64,000 nucleotides of DNA from positions 8,796-72,795 of the forward strand of contig JAKPQA010000074.1 in NCBI GenBank assembly GCA_029547025.1, read 5' to 3'. Positions 2,718 to 64,000 of the stretch are shown one piece after another. The DNA comes from Armatimonadota bacterium. Its GTDB lineage: Bacteria > Armatimonadota > Zipacnadia > UBA1398 > JAKPQA01. The translations under genes were made by a program, and so were the position numbers. Numbering within the stretch: the first letter of the stretch is position 1; the number at the start of each line of letters is the position of its first letter. Below the pieces are notes generated by a model, which saw only the letters and a program-made list of their open reading frames with translations, ran no database searches and was not told the origin of the DNA.

Positions 2718-5700
2718 ATGGTGTCGGTCACAGTTCTATGCACGGCTCTGGCATCGGCGGGAGCGCCGAGCTATGTGAATGCGGGATTATGCCTGGCACG
2801 GCCCACGCCCTCCCAGGTCGAGTGGCAGGACATGGAGATCGAGATGTTCCTGTGCCTCGACCCGTGCACCTGGCAGGAACGGGAGTACGACGACCACTCC
2901 ACACCGCTCACCGCCATCAACCCCCAGCAGCTCGACACCGACCAGTGGGCGCACGTGGCGCTCTCGATGGGGGCGAAGCAGATCCTGTTCGTGGCGAAGC
3001 ACACGGGCGGCTTCTGCTGGTGGCAGACGGAGACAAGTGACTACGGCGTGCGCCAGATCCCGTGGCGCGGGGGCCGCGGCGATGTCGTCGCCGACCTGGC
3101 CGAGTCGTGCCGGAAGCATGGGCTGAAGCTGGGGCTCTATCTAAGCCCGGCCGATGACGTTCACGGAGCGACCACCGGTGGACGCTGCCCGACGGCGGAG
3201 GCGCAGGCGGCCTACGCCCGCATCTACCGCCAGCAGCTGGCCGAGCTCCTCGGGCGCTATGGCCCCATCAGCGAGATCTGGTTCGACGGGAACCTGGTCA
3301 TCGACGTCGCCGACATCCTGGAGCGATTCGCGCCGGAGGCCATGGTCTTTCAGGGTCCGCGAGCGACCATCCGCTGGGTCGGGAACGAGGAGGGTTACGC
3401 CCCATACCCGGCGTGGAACGCTGTGGCTCGCGGGGATGCCGCCTCGGGAGGTGCCACCGCTGCCCACGGTACACCCGACGGCGACGTCTGGCTTCCCATC
3501 GAGGTCGACACCGTCAACGTGTCGCCCCACTACTGGTTCTGGAAGCGGAGCCCCGAACGTCGCCTGCGTACCGTGGCGGAGCTGATGGACTGCTACTACC
3601 GCTCGGTCGGTCACGGTGCCGTGCTGTTGCTGAACCAGAGCCCTGACACTCGGGGGCTCATTCCTGCGGAGGATGCGCGCGTCGCGGCGGAGTTCGGGGC
3701 CGAGATCCGTCGCCGCTTCGGCCGGAGCCTGGCAGAGACACGCGGCCAGGGGACCCGGGTGGATCTGGACCTGGGCGGGTGGCGGTGGGTGGATCACGTG
3801 GTCACGATGGAGGAGATCCGGCGGGGCGAGCGCATCCGCGAGTACTCGCTGGAGGGCAGAACCAGCTGCGGCTGGCAGGAGTTGTGCCGTGGCACGGCCG
3901 TGGGACACAAGCGGATCGACCGCTTCGCCCCGGTCTGGGTCTCGGCGATCCGGCTGCGCTGCACGCGATCGGCTGCGACGCCGGTCATCCGGCGGCTAGC
4001 GGCCTACTACGTTGGTCTGTGTGAACCACGCGGTGGGGCGCTGCGATGGACCTTTGACCGCGACGAGGTCGGCGCGGCAGCCGGCCTCTACCGGGCCGAG
4101 CCGCGCGGCGCGCGGCTCGTTGCGGGCATTATCGGCGACGCCCTGCAACTGGACGGCCATGGTGCCCATGTCCGCCTTGGCGATGTTCCGATTCCCGAGG
4201 GAGACTTCACCCTGGCCGCGTGGATCTGCCCGCGCACCGTGACGCGCCGCGAGCAGATCATTGTGGCCAAGGAGCGGAGCGGCGTCGCCGACCACCAGTT
4301 CCGCCTGTACCTGGCGCCAGGCAACCGGGTGGGGTTCATCCACTCGGATGGGGAAGGCCACGGCGCGTGGCCCTCTGCCGGAGTGGGGGACGCGCTACCG
4401 GCGAGGCAGTGGTCGCATGTGGCGGTGACGCGGGGTCCGTCCGGGTACACCGCCTGGGTGAACGGCCAGGCCGTGGCGACCGCGCCTCCCTCGGGCAGCA
4501 TCCGGCACCGCAACACGCTGGAGCTGCGCGCCGGAGCGCGCTACGCCCCATCGGGCGACGGCGCGGACAGCCCATTCGACGGCCTGATCGACGAGGTCAT
4601 TCTGGCGCCGCGGGCTCTGTCGGAAGCAGAACTTCAGCCATCTCCGGCCGCCCGGGCGCTCATGTCGCAACCGGTGGAGATGACGCCCATGCAGAGAGGC
4701 CCACTGGCCAAGCCCACGCCGCAGCAGGCGGAGTGGCACGACCTCGAAGTGGGGATGTTCATCCACTTCGGTCCCAACACGTGGCAGAACCAGGAGGGCG
4801 ACGACCTCTCGACGCCGCTCGATCAGATCAACCCCCAACGACTGGACACCGACCAGTGGGTCTCCGTCGCTGATTCCATGGGGGCCCGGTACATTGTCTT
4901 CGTCGCCAAGCACGTCGGTGGCTTCTGTTGGTGGCAGACGGACACGACGGACTACAGCGTCGGCCACACGCCATGGCGCGGCGGCCGGGGCGACGTGATG
5001 GCTGATCTGGCCGCATCGTGCCGCAGGCGCGGGATGAAGCTCGGCGTCTACCTGTCACCTTGCGACCGCAAGCACGGCATCGACGTCGGTGGTCGCGCTC
5101 CGACTCCCGAGGCCCAAGAGCAGTACAATGCCCTCTACCGGCGCCAGCTCACCGAGCTACTCACCCGCTACGGTGACATTGTCGAGATCTGGTTCGATGG
5201 CAGCATTGTGGTGCCGGTGGGCGACATCCTGCAGGAGCATGCGCCGCGGGCGATGGTCTTCCAGGGTCCCCACGCAACGATCCGGTGGGTGGGCACCGAG
5301 TCGGGCTTCGCGCCGTACCCGGCCTGGAATGGCGTCAGCCTGGCTGACGCGAGATCGGGAGTCGCCACGGCAGCGCACGGGACCCCCGACGGCGATGCTT
5401 GGCTCCCCAACGAGGTCGATACCGTCAATGTGGTCCCACACTACTGGTTCTGGAACACCGACCCGAACCGGAGACTCAAGACCGTCGACGAGCTCATGGA
5501 GTGCTACTATCAGTCCGTCGGGCGCGGGGCGGTCCTGCTGCTGAACCAGACGCCAGACACGTCGGGACTCATCCCCCAGGCCGATGCGCGCCGCGCCGCC
5601 GAGTTCGGGGCGGAAGTGAGGCGGCGGTTCGGGATACCCATCGCAGAGACGCGGGGCCGGGGCCAGACCGTCGAGCTCAAGCTGCCACGGACGGCCTCGG

Positions 5701-36669: not shown

Positions 36670-37877
36670 AGCTGCGCGTGCTGTTCGTCGATGACGAACC
36701 CAACGTGCTACAGGGTCTCCGCCGGATGCTGCGCCCTCAACGCGATGAGTGGGACATGGACTTCTCGAGCAGCGGCGCGGCCGCGCTGGCTGCCATGAGG
36801 GAGTCGCCCTACGACGTCATCGTGTGCGACATGCGGATGCCGGGGATGGACGGAGCGCAGGTGCTGGCTGCCGTACGCGACCAGTTCCCAGGCACAACGC
36901 GCATCATCCTCTCTGGCCAGTCGGACGACGAGAGCGTGATGCGCACCGTCGGCCCGGCCCATCAGTTCCTCTCGAAACCTTGTGACCCGTCGGCACTACG
37001 GGACGCTATTGCCAGAGCCCAGTCGCTGCGGAGGCTACTGAGGTCCGACAACCTGCTGTCACTCGTGGGGCGCATCGATGTCCTCCCTCCGCTGCCAAGG
37101 ATCTACACCGAGCTCGTCGAGGTCCTCCAGTCTCCCGGTTCCTCAGCGAAGGAGGTTGCCTACGTCGTCTCCAAGGATGTCGGGATGGCCGCGAAGATAC
37201 TGCAACTCGTGAACTCGGCATTCTTCGGATTGCCGCGCCGGGTCACCAACATGACCATGGCCGTCAGCTATCTCGGCAACGAGACCATCCGAGCCCTGGT
37301 CCTGACCGCCAGTGTCTTCTCACAGCTAGGGCGGCGGCGCATGGAATGGTTCCCCATGGAGGCGCTCTGGAACCACTGCATCCTGGTGGGCGCGGTGGCG
37401 TCTCGTGTGTGTACCATACATCAGGCCGACCGCCCCTTGGTGGACGATGCCATGCTGGCCGGTTCGCTGCACGACGTGGGGCGCTTGGTCCTCGCCGTCG
37501 CCGACAGCGCTGCCTACAAGGAGGCGATGGCTCTGGCCGCCAAAGAGCAGCTGTCGGCTGGCGACGCGGAGGCCCGGGTGCTCGGAGCCACGCACGCCGA
37601 GGCCGGTGCATACCTCATGGGCCTGTGGGGGCTGCCTGACCCGGTGGTCGAGGCCGTCGCCTACCATCACCGCCCTGCCGAAGGCGGCCCGCCCTCCTGG
37701 TCGCCACTCGCAGTTGTCCACGTAGCCGATGTGGTGGCCCATGAGGCAGTGCCGCCCCCCGATCGATGCCGGCCGGGTGTGCTGGACCAGAAGTATGTGG
37801 CGCCCCTGGGCGTGCTCGAGACATGGCACTGCCTGATCGAGGAATTCCGTGGCCTCGTCGAAGGAGACACGCGATGA
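36666..37877 (+). CDS. Response regulator, REC plus HDOD domain
   Basis: ATGA overlap with kinase; VLFVDDE, CDMRMPGMDG, LSKP; KILQLVNSAFFGL, LHDVGRLVL, HAEAGAYLMGLWGLP. Confidence 0.92.
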   Translation: MKLRVLFVDDEPNVLQGLRRMLRPQRDEWDMDFSSSGAAALAAMRESPYDVIVCDMRMPGMDGAQVLAAVRDQFPGTTRIILSGQSDDESVMRTVGPAHQFLSKPCDPSALRDAIARAQSLRRLLRSDNLLSLVGRIDVLPPLPRIYTELVEVLQSPGSSAKEVAYVVSKDVGMAAKILQLVNSAFFGLPRRVTNMTMAVSYLGNETIRALVLTASVFSQLGRRRMEWFPMEALWNHCILVGAVASRVCTIHQADRPLVDDAMLAGSLHDVGRLVLAVADSAAYKEAMALAAKEQLSAGDAEARVLGATHAEAGAYLMGLWGLPDPVVEAVAYHHRPAEGGPPSWSPLAVVHVADVVAHEAVPPPDRCRPGVLDQKYVAPLGVLETWHCLIEEFRGLVEGDTR

Positions 37878-39013
37878 ACCACCGCGTCCTGTGTGTCGAC
37901 GACGATCCAAACATGCTGGCTGCCTGCCGCCGGCGCCTGCGAGGCATCTGCTCGGTTCAGACCGCAACCGGCGGTGCCGAGGCCATGGAACGCCTGGTCT
38001 CCGGCGGCCCTTTCGCGGTGATGGTGACTGATCACCGCATGCCCGGCATGAGCGGCATCGAGCTCCTCAGCCGCGCGGCGGAGCGCGTGCCCGACACGGT
38101 CCGGATCATGCTGACAGGACATGCCGACCTGGCGAGCGCAATGTCCGCTGTGAACGATGGGCGTGTGTTCCGTTTCCTCACCAAGCCATGCGCCGCTGGG
38201 CAGCTCGAAGGAGCCGTGCGCGATGCCCTCGAGCAGTACCGCCTGGTGACAAGCGAACGGGACTTGCGCACGCGCCTGGAGGCTCGGGTACGGGAGCAAG
38301 TGGACCAGATCGCGGCGGCTCAACTGGCGGTCATCGTCGCCATGTCCCGACTCGCCGAGTCGCGCGACCCGGGCACCGGCCATCATCTGGAACGGATCGG
38401 TACCTGCTGCCGGGTCCTTGGCGAGCGGCTGCAGGCCTGCTCCCGGGACGGCTATCAGATTGACGGCGCCGCCCTCGACGTGCTGTGCGCCGCCAGCGCA
38501 CTGCACGACATCGGCAAGGTGGGGATCCCCGACCGGATCCTCCTCAAGCCCGGCCCGCTCGCCGAGGACGAGTGGGCCGTGATGCGCACCCATACCACGC
38601 TCGGCGCCGAGACCCTCCGTGCCGTGGACCGACAGCATCCTGGAAACGCACTGGTGCGCGCCGGGATCGACATCGCAGAGGCCCACCACGAGTGGTGGAA
38701 CGGGCAGGGCTACCCTCGCGGCTTGACCGGAGAAGCCATACCTCTCTTCGCGCGCATCGTTGCCGTTGCCGATATGTATGACGCGCTGACCTCCGATCGG
38801 CCTTACCGGTCCGCCCTTGAGCACGGCCGCGCGGTCGAGCTCATCGTCACTGCGGCTGGCCAGCAGCTCGACCCAGTGCTCGTGGACGCGTTTGAGGCCA
38901 CCGGGGAGCGCCTCCACCAGCTGGGGGCCCGCCTCCGCGATGGGTGCGGGGCCCCTGCCGCAGCCGGCATACCAGGGGGGAGATCCGGTGAATCCAAAGG
39001 TTCTCTGCGTTGA
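37874..39013 (+). CDS. Response regulator, REC plus HD-GYP phosphodiesterase (RpfG-like)
   Basis: ATGA overlap; ESRDPGTGHHLER, LHDIGKVGIPD, HHEWWNGQGYP, ARIVAVADMYDAL, RPYR. Confidence 0.92.
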   Translation: MNHRVLCVDDDPNMLAACRRRLRGICSVQTATGGAEAMERLVSGGPFAVMVTDHRMPGMSGIELLSRAAERVPDTVRIMLTGHADLASAMSAVNDGRVFRFLTKPCAAGQLEGAVRDALEQYRLVTSERDLRTRLEARVREQVDQIAAAQLAVIVAMSRLAESRDPGTGHHLERIGTCCRVLGERLQACSRDGYQIDGAALDVLCAASALHDIGKVGIPDRILLKPGPLAEDEWAVMRTHTTLGAETLRAVDRQHPGNALVRAGIDIAEAHHEWWNGQGYPRGLTGEAIPLFARIVAVADMYDALTSDRPYRSALEHGRAVELIVTAAGQQLDPVLVDAFEATGERLHQLGARLRDGCGAPAAAGIPGGRSGESKGSLR

Positions 39014-40151
39014 TGACGAACCCAACGTGCTGGCCGCGTTCCAGCGGCAGCTGCGCCGCGAGTTCGCGCTGGACACGGCGGAGGGCGGAGCGGCGGGGCT
39101 GAAGGCCCTGGCCGCGTCCGGTCCCTATGCCGTGGTGGTCTCGGACCTTCGCATGCCGGGCATGGACGGCATCGAGTTCCTCTCGCGTGTCCGGCAAGCG
39201 GCACCGGATACGGTGCGCATTATGCTGACCGGGAACGCGGACCTGAGCACTGCCATCGACGCCGTCAACGAAGGAGCGATCTTCCGCTTCCTCACCAAAC
39301 CATGCCCCATGGACACTCTGGTGACCACCATCCGCGCGGGGGCGGCGCAGTACCGGCTGGTCACCGCAGAGCGCGAGCTCCTGGAGAAGACCCTTACCGG
39401 AAGCATCAAGGTGTTGACCGACGTGCTCTCCCTGGCGAACCCGGCGGCGTTCGGCCGCGCGGCTCGGGTGCGTCGGATCGTGTACTCCGTCGCCGAGGCG
39501 ATGGGACTCGCCGATGCGTGGCTCTATGGCATCGCTGCCATGCTCTCGCAAGTGGGATGTGTATCCCTCCCCGAGGTCATTCTCCATAAGCTCAACTCCG
39601 GCCAGCCCATGGATGCGGAGGAACAGCGGCTGTTCGAGGAGCATCCAGGCATCGGAAGTGAGCTCCTCGCCAACATCCCTCGACTGGAGCCGGTGGCAAA
39701 GATCGTCGCCTACCAGGAGAAGAACTACGATGGCACCGGGGTCCCGGCCGACGACGTCAAAGGCGACGAGATACCTCTGGGCGCCCGTGTGCTCCACGCC
39801 GCGCTTCATTACGACGCACTCCTGTCGGCCGGCAAGTCGAGTACAGCCGCCGTTGCCGCAATGCAACGGCGCTCAGGGCACTACGATCCTGCCATCGTCT
39901 CGGCACTGGCCGAAGTGGCAGGGGCCGAGAGCTCATGGGAGGAGCGGCTGGTGTCGGCCTGGGATCTCGCAGCAGGCATGTCGCTCCTCGATGACGTAAC
40001 CACACCAACCGGCGCCCTCGTGGTCTGCAGAGGCCAGGAGGTGACCCCGTCGATCCGAGCCCGCCTGATCAGCCTGGTCAGGCGAGCCGCTGTCCGAGAG
40101 CCATTTCGGGTGCTCGCGCCAGTCACCCCGATGAGGGGTGGCGATGTCTGA
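38988..40151 (+). CDS. Response regulator, REC plus degenerate HD-GYP-like domain
   Basis: GTG 38988 after GGGGAG; intact REC; LSQVGC replaces LHDIGK and YQEKNYDGTGVP replaces HHExxDGxGYP. Confidence 0.88.
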   Translation: MNPKVLCVDDEPNVLAAFQRQLRREFALDTAEGGAAGLKALAASGPYAVVVSDLRMPGMDGIEFLSRVRQAAPDTVRIMLTGNADLSTAIDAVNEGAIFRFLTKPCPMDTLVTTIRAGAAQYRLVTAERELLEKTLTGSIKVLTDVLSLANPAAFGRAARVRRIVYSVAEAMGLADAWLYGIAAMLSQVGCVSLPEVILHKLNSGQPMDAEEQRLFEEHPGIGSELLANIPRLEPVAKIVAYQEKNYDGTGVPADDVKGDEIPLGARVLHAALHYDALLSAGKSSTAAVAAMQRRSGHYDPAIVSALAEVAGAESSWEERLVSAWDLAAGMSLLDDVTTPTGALVVCRGQEVTPSIRARLISLVRRAAVREPFRVLAPVTPMRGGDV

Positions 40152-44074: not shown

Positions 44075-44152
44075 CGGCCCCTCCTCCAACTGCCGTCGGC
44101 GCGAGACTGGCCGGCCATACCGAGGACTCGCACGGCGGAGTCCTCCGCCACC

Positions 44153-44405
44153 CATTGGCGGTAACTGAGGGCTCCAGTGGCCCATCAGCCTGGTTGCGGA
44201 GGGGCGCCATGGGGGGAACCACGCGTCTCCCAGCGTGGTGGGCCCCCAACGCGCCCGATCGGCACGCGCCAACGTCGGGCCGGTCAGGGGCCCCGCGCCC
44301 TCTGGGCACACCCCTGCGCGGCCCCTCCGAAAGACCAGGCGGGCGTTCCCCGCGACCTTCGCGAGACCCAGCCGCCCGGCCCAGGGCCCTATGTTACCGC
44401 CAATG
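44153..44405. mobile_element. MITE copy 1 (253 bp), 13-bp perfect TIR, 11-bp TSD
   Basis: TIR CATTGGCGGTAAC 44153-44165 / GTTACCGCCAATG 44393-44405; direct repeat CCTCCGCCACC at 44142-44152 and 44406-44416; homologous to 62982-63386 in inverted orientation. Confidence 0.9.
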
Positions 44406-44483
44406 CCTCCGCCACCTCACCGGTGGTCGGACCCTATCCGGCCCGCGCCGGCCGCAAGGCCCACGTGGGCAGATCGCCAGCCG

Positions 44484-51559: not shown

Positions 51560-51664
51560 CATTGGCGGTAACTTGGGCCCAGGTGGTGCGCCGAAGGCCC
51601 GTACGCCGCACCGCCCCTCCACGACCGCGTCCACGGGCCGATGGAGCCCGATGTGACCGTCATG
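51560..51664. repeat. Short degenerate relative of the MITE lacking the central module
   Basis: Perfect CATTGGCGGTAAC at 51560; right end GCCCCTCC..GGGCCGATGGAGCCCGATGTGACCGTCATG aligns with 63334-63386; no TSD. Confidence 0.65.
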
Positions 51665-62095: not shown

Positions 62096-62728
62096 TCACT
62101 TGAACTGGGTGGTGGGTTGCTGCACCAGGAACTTGGCATGCCCGTCGAGGTACCCAACAACCATGGCGCGACGGTGACCGACATGCACGGGGTAGGCCGT
62201 TTCTTTGTAGAAGTAGTCGGAGACGATCCAAGTGGTGGGTTCCCACCCGTCGGTAACCTGCCGGGGCTTGTTGCCCCAGTTGTTCGGGTTCGTGAGAAAC
62301 TGCTTGTCGACCCACTGCATGGGCAGTACGCCGGTACTGGGGAGTTCAGAGAAACAGAACCAGTAGTAGCTGATGTTGCCTGCGGCCTGGTTCTGCTCGT
62401 TGCAGACGATATCGGCGACCTGGGCGGCCGGTGCGCTCGGACAGTAGTAGATGCCCATGGCCTTGGTGTAGGGCCAGAGCTTGCTGATGAGGAGGGCATG
62501 GGGATTGCCGGCGTGGTAGTCGGACGGTAGCTCGCCGTCGTAGTCGGACGCGTACATGAGCGCGCCGTAGAGCAATTGCTTGCAGTTCGAGATGCAGGTG
62601 GCCACACGGGCCTTATCCCTGGCCTTGGCGAACACTGGGAAGAGAATGGCCGCCAAGATGGCGATGATGGCGATGACGACAAGGAGTTCGATGAGCGTAA
62701 AGCCTGGTGAGCGAGTTCGGTTGGCCAC
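62096..62728 (-). CDS. Prepilin-type N-terminal cleavage/methylation protein (DUF1559, H-X9-DG-like motif)
   Basis: GTG 62728 after GGAGG; [52 protein letters not shown]. Confidence 0.92.
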
Positions 62729-62981
62729 CTCTGCACCTCCGGTTGACCCGCGAAGGGCTTGCATCTATATGCAATTCGCATTGATATCAGGATTCCTGAC
62801 AACGGAATCTGGGAAGCACAGGTATACGCGAGGCCGGCTGGTGGGGGCACTGCGCCTGTGGCGAACGAATGAGGCGAGCGAAGGCAGCGGATTGGAGTCG
62901 GCGAACGCGAGGGAATGGGGCGGGAAGCAGGGGCTGAGACGGTGAGGCGGACCGTGAGCGGACCCAAAGACCCAAGAGGCG

Positions 62982-63386
62982 CATGGGCGGTAACATAGGG
63001 CCTTTGGCCGGGCGGCTGGGTCTCGCGAAGGTCGCGCGGAACGCCCGCCTGGTCTTTCGGAGGGGCCGCACAGGGGTGCGCCCAGAGGGCGCGGGGCCCC
63101 TGAGCGGCCCGAGGTTGAGGCGTGCAGATCGGGCGCGTTGGGGGCCCACCACGCTGGGAGACGCGTGGTTCCCCCCATGGCGCCCCTCCGAAAGGCATTG
63201 GAACCACCGAGGAGGGGCGGCACAGGGGGGCGCCCAGAGGGCGCGGGGCCCCTGACCGGTCCGAGGTTGAGGCGTGCGGATCGGGCGCGTTGGGGGCCCA
63301 CCACGCTGGGAGACGCGTGGTTCCCCCCATGGCGCCCCTCCGCAACCAGGCTGATGGGCCACTGGAGCCCTCAGTTACCGCCAATG
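62982..63386. mobile_element. MITE copy 2 (405 bp) with duplicated central module, 11-bp TSD
   Basis: CATGGGCGGTAAC 62982-62994 / GTTACCGCCAATG 63374-63386; direct repeat CCCAAGAGGCG at 62971-62981 and 63387-63397; 133-bp modules at 63058-63190 and 63210-63342. Confidence 0.9.
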
Positions 63387-63424
63387 CCCAAGAGGCGGGA
63401 CCGGCATGGCCCCGCCTCTTGGGC
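63386..63424 (-). terminator. Probable groEL terminator hairpin
   Basis: 14-bp stem GCCCAAGAGGCGGG / CCCGCCTCTTGGGC with 11-nt loop, about 60 bp after the groEL stop; the original TCTTT tail now lies beyond the MITE at 62966-62970. Confidence 0.6.
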
Positions 63425-63486
63425 GTGCTGGCGAACTGAACAGCGCCCCTCAGTCCCGCCCTCTCCGGAGAGGAGAGGGGGAGGAC

Positions 63487-64000
63487 CTAGAAGTCGTCGT
63501 AGCCGCCACCACCGGGAGGGGCGGGCGGGGGCGTCTTCTCGGGCTTCTCGGCGATGAGCGCTTCAGTCGTGAGGACCAGCGAGCCGATGCTCGCGGCATT
63601 CTCGAGAGCGCATCGAGTGACTTTGACGGGGTCGACGACGCCCGCTTTGACCAGGTCCTCGTACTTTTCGGTGAGGGCGTTGAGGCCGACCATTGGGTCC
63701 TGAGCATCGCGGACGGTGGCGGCGGCGATGGAGGGTTCGAGGCCCGCGTTGGCCGCGATCTGGCGCAGGGGTTCCTCCAGCGCGGCACGGATGATCTCCA
63801 CGCCCGTTTTCTCGTCGCCCGAGGCGCGGACTTTGTCGAGGGCGGCGATGGCGCGGATGTAGGCGGTGCCGCCGCCGGGGACGATGCCCTCCTCAACGGC
63901 CGCTCGAGTCGCGGAGAGTGCGTCCTCGTAGCGGTGCTTTTTCTCTTTGAGTTCGGTTTCGGTGGCGGCGCCGACCCGAATGACGGCGACGCCTCCGGCG
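63487..64000 (-). CDS. groEL: Chaperonin GroEL, 3' part (truncated by window edge)
   Basis: [73 protein letters not shown]. Confidence 0.97.

Follow-up and report, generated by a model that had tools for sequence, protein, structure and literature searches.

The window analysed in this study comprises 64,000 nt and corresponds to positions 8796-72795 of contig C342 in the genome G000, a short-read assembly of 369 contigs and 6.3 Mb with 67.6% G+C that is 96% complete. Close to the end of this window, a repeat element of 405 nt containing two internal modules (copy 2) was located between groEL and the gene of a DUF1559 protein, both of them transcribed from the minus strand. The element lies 100 nt downstream of the groEL stop codon, and the DUF1559 gene is the next gene downstream of it. 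A one-module copy in the opposite orientation (copy 1) and a relic are also present in the window. The features considered here are the following:

44142-44152 and 44406-44416, no strand: target-site duplication of copy 1, CCTCCGCCACC, perfect over 11 bp
44153-44405, minus strand: copy 1 (one module), 253 nt, in the opposite orientation to copy 2
44153-44196, 44197-44329 and 44330-44405, minus strand: arm C, module and arm A of copy 1, respectively
51560-51664, plus strand: relic of 105 nt, arm subtype A'/C', module deleted
62096-62764, minus strand: gene of a prepilin-type N-terminal / DUF1559 protein (Pfam PF07963 and PF07596)
62971-62981, no strand: left target-site duplication of copy 2, CCCAAGAGGCG, the same 11-mer being found at 63387-63397
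62982-63386, plus strand: copy 2 (two modules), 405 nt
62982-63057, plus strand: arm A of copy 2, 76 nt, opening with the terminal inverted repeat CATGGGCGGTAAC
63058-63190, plus strand: module 1 of copy 2, 133 nt, a pair of REP-like half-units in inverted orientation, closed by CGGAGGGGC...GCCCCTCCG
63191-63209, plus strand: spacer of copy 2, 19 nt, type 2, AAAGGCATTGGAACCACCG
63210-63342, plus strand: module 2 of copy 2, 133 nt, 96% identity to module 1
63343-63386, plus strand: arm C of copy 2, 44 nt, with the terminal inverted repeat GTTACCGCCAATG at its end
63387-63397, no strand: right target-site duplication of copy 2, coinciding with the left arm of the hairpin 63387-63425
63487-63999, minus strand: 3' end of the groEL (Cpn60) gene (Pfam PF00118, E = 2.9e-31)

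An earlier note on this DNA had placed one module in copy 1 and two in copy 2, and both the numbers and their coordinates were confirmed. The tandem of copy 2 was recovered by Tandem Repeats Finder (period 152, 1.9 copies, 96% matches, score 533) and, in a separate repeat search of the window, as a 135-nt direct pair (96%, spacing 152); copies 1 and 2 were 94-95% complementary to each other over 213 and 176 nt. The inverted repeat GGAGGGGC/GCCCCTCC, which had been proposed to bound the module, was found as described and corresponds to the core of the REP-like unit analysed below. The description of the relic as lacking a module was nearly right: only the last 10 nt of one (CGCCCCTCCA) persist in it. 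The right terminal repeat of this relic has decayed to GTGACCGTCATG, and the relic could be aligned with C277:40729-40852 and C172. When folded as single-stranded DNA, the modules gave z values against shuffled sequences of -4.4 (module 1), -5.0 (module 2) and -3.4 (module of copy 1), with 0 of 200 shuffles being as good for each of the three modules.

Analysis of the insertion sites revealed that copy 2 is inserted into one arm of a G+C-rich hairpin (63387-63425) located behind the groEL stop codon. This hairpin was left intact by the target duplication, and the sequence that formerly followed it was displaced by 405 nt; a consensus scan did not call the hairpin a terminator. Copy 1 is located between a DUF1549/DUF1553 gene and a DUF1501 gene, inside a decayed half-unit of the type described below. 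Elsewhere in the window (2793-5662), three direct repeat pairs of 300, 182 and 101 nt with 71-82% identity and a spacing of 1911 throughout were observed, which look like an old tandem duplication of a gene segment of ~1.9 kb. A 58-nt stretch also occurs three times within 36678-39057, with spacings of ~1.1-1.2 kb and 66-74% identity, and looks like the conserved start of three adjacent paralogous genes; from the wording GTxCTxxxxGTxGAxGACGA.., we presume that these paralogues possibly encode response-regulator receiver domains.

Iterated nhmmer profiles of arm A, the module and arm C were run over G000 and yielded 60, 146 and 71 matches, respectively, distributed in 135 clusters. The termini of the element consist of 13-bp terminal inverted repeats (CATTGGCGGTAAC / GTTACCGCCAATG); the exact 13-mer CATTGGCGGTAAC is present in 64 copies in G000, where the reversed-pattern control gave 0, and is found at most once per genome in 78 other genomes of the class. 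Target-site duplications of 11 bp were perfect in 7 of 23 two-armed copies and had one mismatch in 4 more. The elements range in size from 105 to 615 nt and are non-coding, though open frames cross them. Additional evidence was obtained from the metagenome contig L031, in which an A-module-C element is placed between CCCACCCACCC duplications. The corresponding insertion site in G000 (C254, ~35746) is empty and single-copy, and the rest of L031 is >99.7% identical to C254. The comparison of the filled site in L031 with the empty site in C254 indicates that the shell, i.e. arms A and C, has moved recently in this population. Altogether, these data show that the element is a real mobile MITE.

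The 11-bp targets match a CCC-N5-GGG-like profile. In addition, a REP core was found within 40 nt in 21 of the 112 outer flanks of the MITE, in comparison with 0.8% of random windows; landing in REP-like units may be a simple by-product of the CCC-N5-GGG-like target. Taken by themselves, the 13-bp terminal repeats and the 11-bp duplications suggest a DDE-type transposase acting in trans. Elements of the IS231 type within the IS4 family, as well as their MIC231 derivatives, have ends beginning with CAT and 10-12 bp direct repeats, features that would presumably fit the CATTGG... ends and the 11-bp duplications of this MITE. An autonomous partner with the same terminal repeats was found neither in G000, whose assembly is incomplete, nor in the genomes of the class, and the terminal-repeat pairs separated by up to 6 kb in G000 enclose ordinary genes and no transposases. 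Single terminal-repeat matches in G034, G051 and G075 had no partner repeat and look like chance. Two genes of the DDE_Tnp_1 family (PF01609), encoding proteins of 464 and 450 aa, are located on the short contigs C267 and C355 (L011 and L012); they were considered as partners and rejected, their terminal repeats being different. In C267, 22-nt inverted repeats (394-415 / 2046-2067) bound an insertion sequence of ~1.7 kb that is unrelated to the MITE.

The MITE family is restricted to this lineage. Searching the DNA of 40 relatives gave hits in three genomes only, all of them marginal (E no better than 3e-4), and none of 185,579 species genomes contained a match to a 24-nt module pattern. The same pattern matched 78 metagenome stretches, 68 of which share at least 300 nt with G000, mostly at identities of at least 99%. 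Four stretches (L022, L039, L043 and L069) showed just 76-92% identity, which points to other organisms. The runs containing the locus correspond to activated sludge, wastewater and digesters. The groEL fragment of the window matched many phyla, at 57-69% identity.

The number of modules per element was determined in the same assembly. At least two module matches were present in 19 of the 135 clusters. Contig ends cut 53 clusters, and complete elements were counted among the 27 clusters with both arms, 18 of which lie at least 1 kb inside contigs. Within these 18 inner elements, one module was found in 16, two in a single case (copy 2) and three in another one (C176:25209-25822). Arrays that are cut by contig ends or that miss an arm contain four modules at C106:1-503 and five at C6:7720-8368, and arrays were also observed in independent metagenome assemblies (L025, L028, L040, L044, L049 and L077). 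Both the 19 clusters and the three-module element support the end-(module)n-end layout put forward in the earlier note. That note had asked whether any other copy varies in module number, and such variation does occur, with n = 1, 2 and 3 in complete elements and cut arrays of 4 and 5.

These counts refer to clusters and not to proven loci, since contig ends share flanks through the repeat. In three pairs, a copy located 30-207 nt from a contig end has a flank in common with the copy of another contig. The flank-sharing copies are C66:39795-40092, C254:38848-39145 and C65:57268-57520, together with C180:19926 and C306:12204; they seem to represent contig overlaps through the repeat, or recombinants, and to inflate the copy counts. 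In two cases (L049 vs C6 and L044 vs C176), one locus in two assemblies differs inside the modules, and the arrays are probably under-assembled.

For 16 of 17 array modules (the exception being C6:8053), a relative from another locus was at least as close as any array-mate over a 95-nt core, a comparison that rests on differences of one to a few bases; the existence of such equally close outside relatives argues against very recent duplication on the spot. When apparently free-standing modules were inspected, ~17 of 20 were found to run into a GCAA(C/G).. arm stub, and several had recognisable decayed arms. Given that this cassette type is almost never found without arm stubs, there is no direct sign of past movement by a RAYT.

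Regarding its fine structure, the module behaves as a mosaic. A 31-nt hairpin block after GGAGGGGCC and a 38-nt hairpin block before CCCCTCC are each absent in some copies, the loop of one module hairpin alternates between GGGAGAC and GAAGCCC, and the centre of the module, where half-units meet tail-to-tail, is either short or ~45 nt longer, the longer form resulting in elements of 298 nt. At least three arm subtypes (A/C, A'/C' and A''/C'') enclose related modules. A 27-nt linker, CAAGACRGKCAACGGTTGGCGTGTCGT, was found at 23 places, and the 19-nt linker between two modules at 4 places (C3, C4, C164 and copy 2).

The 19-nt spacer of copy 2 (63191-63209), together with its flanking sequences CCCCTCCG and AGGAGGGG, constitutes a head-to-head hairpin of a separate repeat family, designated H. 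This is a palindromic repeat of ~135 nt with ~50 copies in G000, whose loop is the 19-nt spacer and which shares the bounding repeat GGAGGGGC/GCCCCTCC with the module. The CATTGG within the spacer had been regarded as TIR-like; this assignment was not borne out, and its origin as a terminal-repeat remnant was rejected because the 19-mer in its entirety forms the loop of the H repeat. The H repeat also occurs in a five- to six-fold tandem with a period of ~160 nt at C134:49-1104, where the 133-nt module is inserted between two loop copies in the last unit.

Comparison of these sequences led to a template for the half-unit, of ~55 nt, which consists of GGAGGGGCC, N2-3, AYRGGGG, a variable hairpin and GGGNCCC..CCGGCCC. 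The template fits each half of the module, each arm of the H repeat and, at C91, C1 and C227, both halves of a variant module, and the two halves of the module align with each other in inverted orientation. Cassettes are joined head-to-head by the 27- or 19-nt linkers, so that the orientation of half-units alternates and the linkers are fixed, a BIME-like arrangement. An analysis of covariation gave 12 compensatory and 28 broken changes out of 1865 pair cells, with copies that are too alike and a consensus fold that is poor.

The start of this template, GGAGGGGCNNNAYRGGGG, has 208 occurrences in G000 and 0 for the reversed-pattern control. It was also found in 18 other genomes of the class, including 28 occurrences in G015, 8 in G027, 8 in G066 and 6 in G055, with controls near zero. 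In G055, a 172-aa protein matches NCBIfam NF047646 at 97.9 bits (cut-off 80) and contains the motifs HVH and YVLANP, and the gene of this RAYT carries an H-like repeat of ~135 nt (CCCCTCC, 29 nt, GGAGGGG) on both sides. Homologues of the G055 RAYT (E <= 1e-10) were identified in 57 of 79 genomes, and 30 RAYT loci, one per genome and taken with the best matches first, were compared. GGAGGGG or CCCCTCC was present within 450 nt of the RAYT gene at 29 of the 30 loci, with scarcely any elsewhere in them. The usual pattern is a forward core upstream and a reverse core downstream of the gene, along with short tandem runs of units at several loci. The density of the core was 1.29 per kb at RAYT loci vs 0.13 per kb at 80 unrelated groEL loci, and no core was found at 8 of 12 Y1-transposase loci identified through Pfam in five relatives. 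Furthermore, the halves of the module align with the RAYT-flanking units of G003, G042 and G056. Upstream of GGAGGGG, the sequences ..CGTT, ..CGTC or ..GTCTTGC are frequent, at no fixed position.

The fit of the template and the presence of the core at 29 of 30 RAYT loci point to a REPIN-like module, the link between module and RAYT consisting of a core of 7-9 nt and a common layout. Judged by its sequence, the module pairs two REP-like units of a RAYT clade in inverted orientation, with arrays that resemble BIMEs, and the half-unit family belongs, on the same grounds, to a RAYT clade widespread in this bacterial class. The nested cassette suggested in the earlier note thus gains a sharper definition: it consists of two inverted REP-like units, and their core is the one that brackets RAYT genes in relatives.

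Two Y1 genes were found in G000, on contigs C157 and C246. The product of C246:5830-6252 (L094:1390-1854) shows 46% identity to the G055 RAYT (E = 6e-29) and 55 bits with NF047646. This gene contains an in-frame TAG and encodes HLY where HUH is expected, and a variant half-unit ending in GGCCCCTCCG lies directly upstream of it, on one side only. It is probably a pseudogene; an intact cognate RAYT could be absent from the 96%-complete assembly and yet present in the genome. The second gene, C157:24587-24907 (L093:1339-1887, minus strand), encodes an intact RAYT of 182 aa (NF047646, 133 bits) that shares 34% identity with the G055 RAYT, and it has tandem arrays of the REP hairpin GAGGCTTCAGCCTC in its flanks. 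It was rejected as the partner of the cassette because the flanking GAGGCTTCAGCCTC repeat is unrelated; this RAYT and its REP represent a second, separate REP-RAYT system in G000. The proposal that the cassette has its own copying mechanism was therefore upheld only in part: the core brackets RAYT genes in relatives, but the cognate RAYT of G000 is broken, the free modules mostly lie between arm stubs, and 16 of 17 array modules have relatives at other loci that are at least as close as any array-mate.

We propose, with a probability of roughly two in three, that the element is a composite non-autonomous transposon in which a DDE-type MITE shell carries and spreads a REPIN-like cargo. According to this proposal, a DDE-type transposase missing from this assembly would move the shell formed by arms A and C in trans, and the cargo would be the 133-nt REPIN-like cassette, in a copy number ranging from one to at least five. 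The number of cassettes would change at the repeated 9-bp cores, through slippage across hairpins, recombination between copies or past RAYT action, and every new form would then be disseminated by transposition of the shell. With the RAYT of G000 broken, the MITE shell would now be the means by which the cassettes multiply, and if each form travels with the shell, the near-constant presence of arm stubs around cassettes of this type would be accounted for. Insertion of the shell into REP-like units is a speculative route by which a cassette may have been placed between two ends. A more specific version, which we advance tentatively and regard as rather doubtful, is that a DDE-type MITE has captured a population of REPINs, their own tyrosine transposase being decayed, and that these now multiply on the machinery of a different enzyme.

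The closest competitor of the composite transposon is a plain BOX-like modular MITE, in which slippage during replication or unequal recombination would make the internal hairpin segment expand or contract, and any resemblance to the RAYT-flanking units would be due to chance or to convergence in G+C-rich palindromes. Such an element would equally have terminal repeats, duplicated targets and a variable number of modules, all of which were observed, its cassette would be expected between arm stubs, where it nearly always is, and the broken state of the cognate RAYT fits it as well; BOX itself has the same layout without any RAYT in the parts of its description cited here (PMC3049150). We nevertheless consider it unlikely, given that the same core is found in the same layout at 29 of 30 loci of the RAYT clade, that an 18-nt pattern is common to other genomes of the class with reversed-pattern controls near zero, that the half-units match the RAYT-flanking units along their whole length, and that the spacer forms the loop of another repeat family, itself REPIN-like.

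Two further explanations concern copy 2 and the function of the cassette. The two-module structure of copy 2 might be an artefact that arose during assembly, if the path through this high-copy repeat was collapsed or mis-threaded, and the true locus would then have one module. The assembly is a short-read one, many of its contigs end in the repeat and share flanks through it, and assemblies of the same locus differ within modules, as seen above for L049 and C6 and for L044 and C176. Moreover, no read or contig bridges the two-module stretch 63058-63342 in the Logan contigs of DNA runs: contigs of two runs reach into copy 2 from both flanks (62700-63033 and 63353-63600), and the records over 63161-63218 end there or enter another repeat, so that they leave the module-spacer-module joint unconfirmed. 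Against these observations, the two modules of copy 2 differ at several positions, the specific 19-nt spacer recurs at C3, C4 and C164, copy 2 sits 2.6 kb inside a contig of 74.8 kb with a perfect target duplication, and independent metagenome assemblies also contain arrays, all of which makes an artefact improbable. The cassette could also be a selected structured RNA gene or regulatory RNA domain whose copy number tunes the expression of its neighbours. The strong fold of the modules (z -3.4 to -5.0), the position of copy 2 directly behind groEL and the contigs from an RNA library that cover parts of the element would agree with this idea, the latter indicating presence only, as contigs do not show strand or transcript ends. 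However, a search of 43500-64000 detected no Rfam family at E <= 1, module 1 folds about equally well on its two strands (-90.1 vs -88.0 kcal/mol), as a DNA palindrome should, and the module of the reverse-oriented copy 1 also folds (z = -3.4). These results, along with the hundreds of copies, the target duplications and the insertion polymorphism, leave very little room for an RNA function, by far the least probable of the explanations considered.

The composite transposon that we favour can be compared with several known systems. In the passages cited here, the BOX elements of pneumococcus and Streptococcus suis are described as boxA-(boxB)n-boxC, with different end types enclosing the same module in S. 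suis (Croucher et al. 2011, PMC3049150). As far as that description goes, the analogy with BOX drawn in the earlier note is apt: our element has the A-(B)n-C layout with variable n, and varied arm subtypes are found around one module, as in S. suis. Terminal-repeat, target-duplicating ends around a variable tandem of a self-folding module and a wide size range are also common to both. On the contrary, the module described here has 133 nt, 19- and 27-nt linkers and a high G+C content, and appears to be a doublet of RAYT-type REP units; the element differs as well in its 11-bp target duplication and in its host, an uncultured sludge bacterium. It would thus work like BOX without being a member of the family, homology being unlikely given the host and the base composition, and the likeness coming from layout alone.

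With regard to REP-type systems, REPINs have reportedly been the subject of work by Bertels and Rainey in 2011. In REPtrons and TIRtrons, as presented in the part of the source used here, REP-type units bracket a RAYT or TIRYT transposase gene (Di Nocera et al. 2013, PMC3733652). Within the limits of such partial descriptions, the cassette resembles REPINs, BIMEs and REPtrons in that inverted pairs of palindromic units give long hairpins; its units are single, dimeric or clustered, in alternating orientation and with fixed linkers, as in REPs and BIMEs; and in relatives these units lie to either side of a tyrosine transposase gene present in single copy, as in REPtrons. Unlike REPINs, which have neither terminal repeats nor target duplications, the doublets are carried within a MITE that has both. 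The units also differ from REPs in their length (~55 nt vs 20-40 nt) and in having no clear GTAG tag, and the RAYT of G000 is broken.

Bacterial MITEs with an inner array are represented by BrickBuilt of Porphyromonas gingivalis, in which, according to the sections cited here, a leader and a tail surround an inner array of tandem repeats whose length varies (Klein et al. 2015, PMC4596501). End pieces around an inner array of varying length are thus a common feature. In contrast to our element, the BrickBuilt repeat has 23 nt, lacks spacers and is not a palindromic doublet, and those sections give no tie to a RAYT. Insertion into REP sequences is mentioned, in the portion of the source used, for IS1397 and IS621 (Delihas 2011, PMC3184786). 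Similarly, the flanks of our MITE are enriched in the REP core and copy 1 itself lies in a decayed unit; in this case, unlike in those IS elements, the preference may just follow the CCC-N5-GGG-like target. In the open-access literature, we found no MITE with RAYT-type REP doublets as modules, i.e. a MITE-REP chimera, and no REP/RAYT system described in this phylum.

To our knowledge, BOX-type modular repeats have been known for decades and the origin of their module has never been settled. In the element studied here, the module appears to be traceable to a RAYT-tied REP family and the shell to a separate transposon class, which would provide a concrete, testable account of how modular repeat mosaics arise and a case of two nested kinds of non-autonomous mobile DNA. 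On the practical side, the family breaks short-read assemblies, with 53 clusters located at contig ends, and its variable-number loci may be usable for strain typing of this sludge bacterium. If the capture of a REPIN population by the MITE proves true, the REPINs would have changed their replicative host, passing from one transposition system to another, unrelated one, and the result would be a repeat within a repeat that can grow as a BIME-like array and then spread whole.
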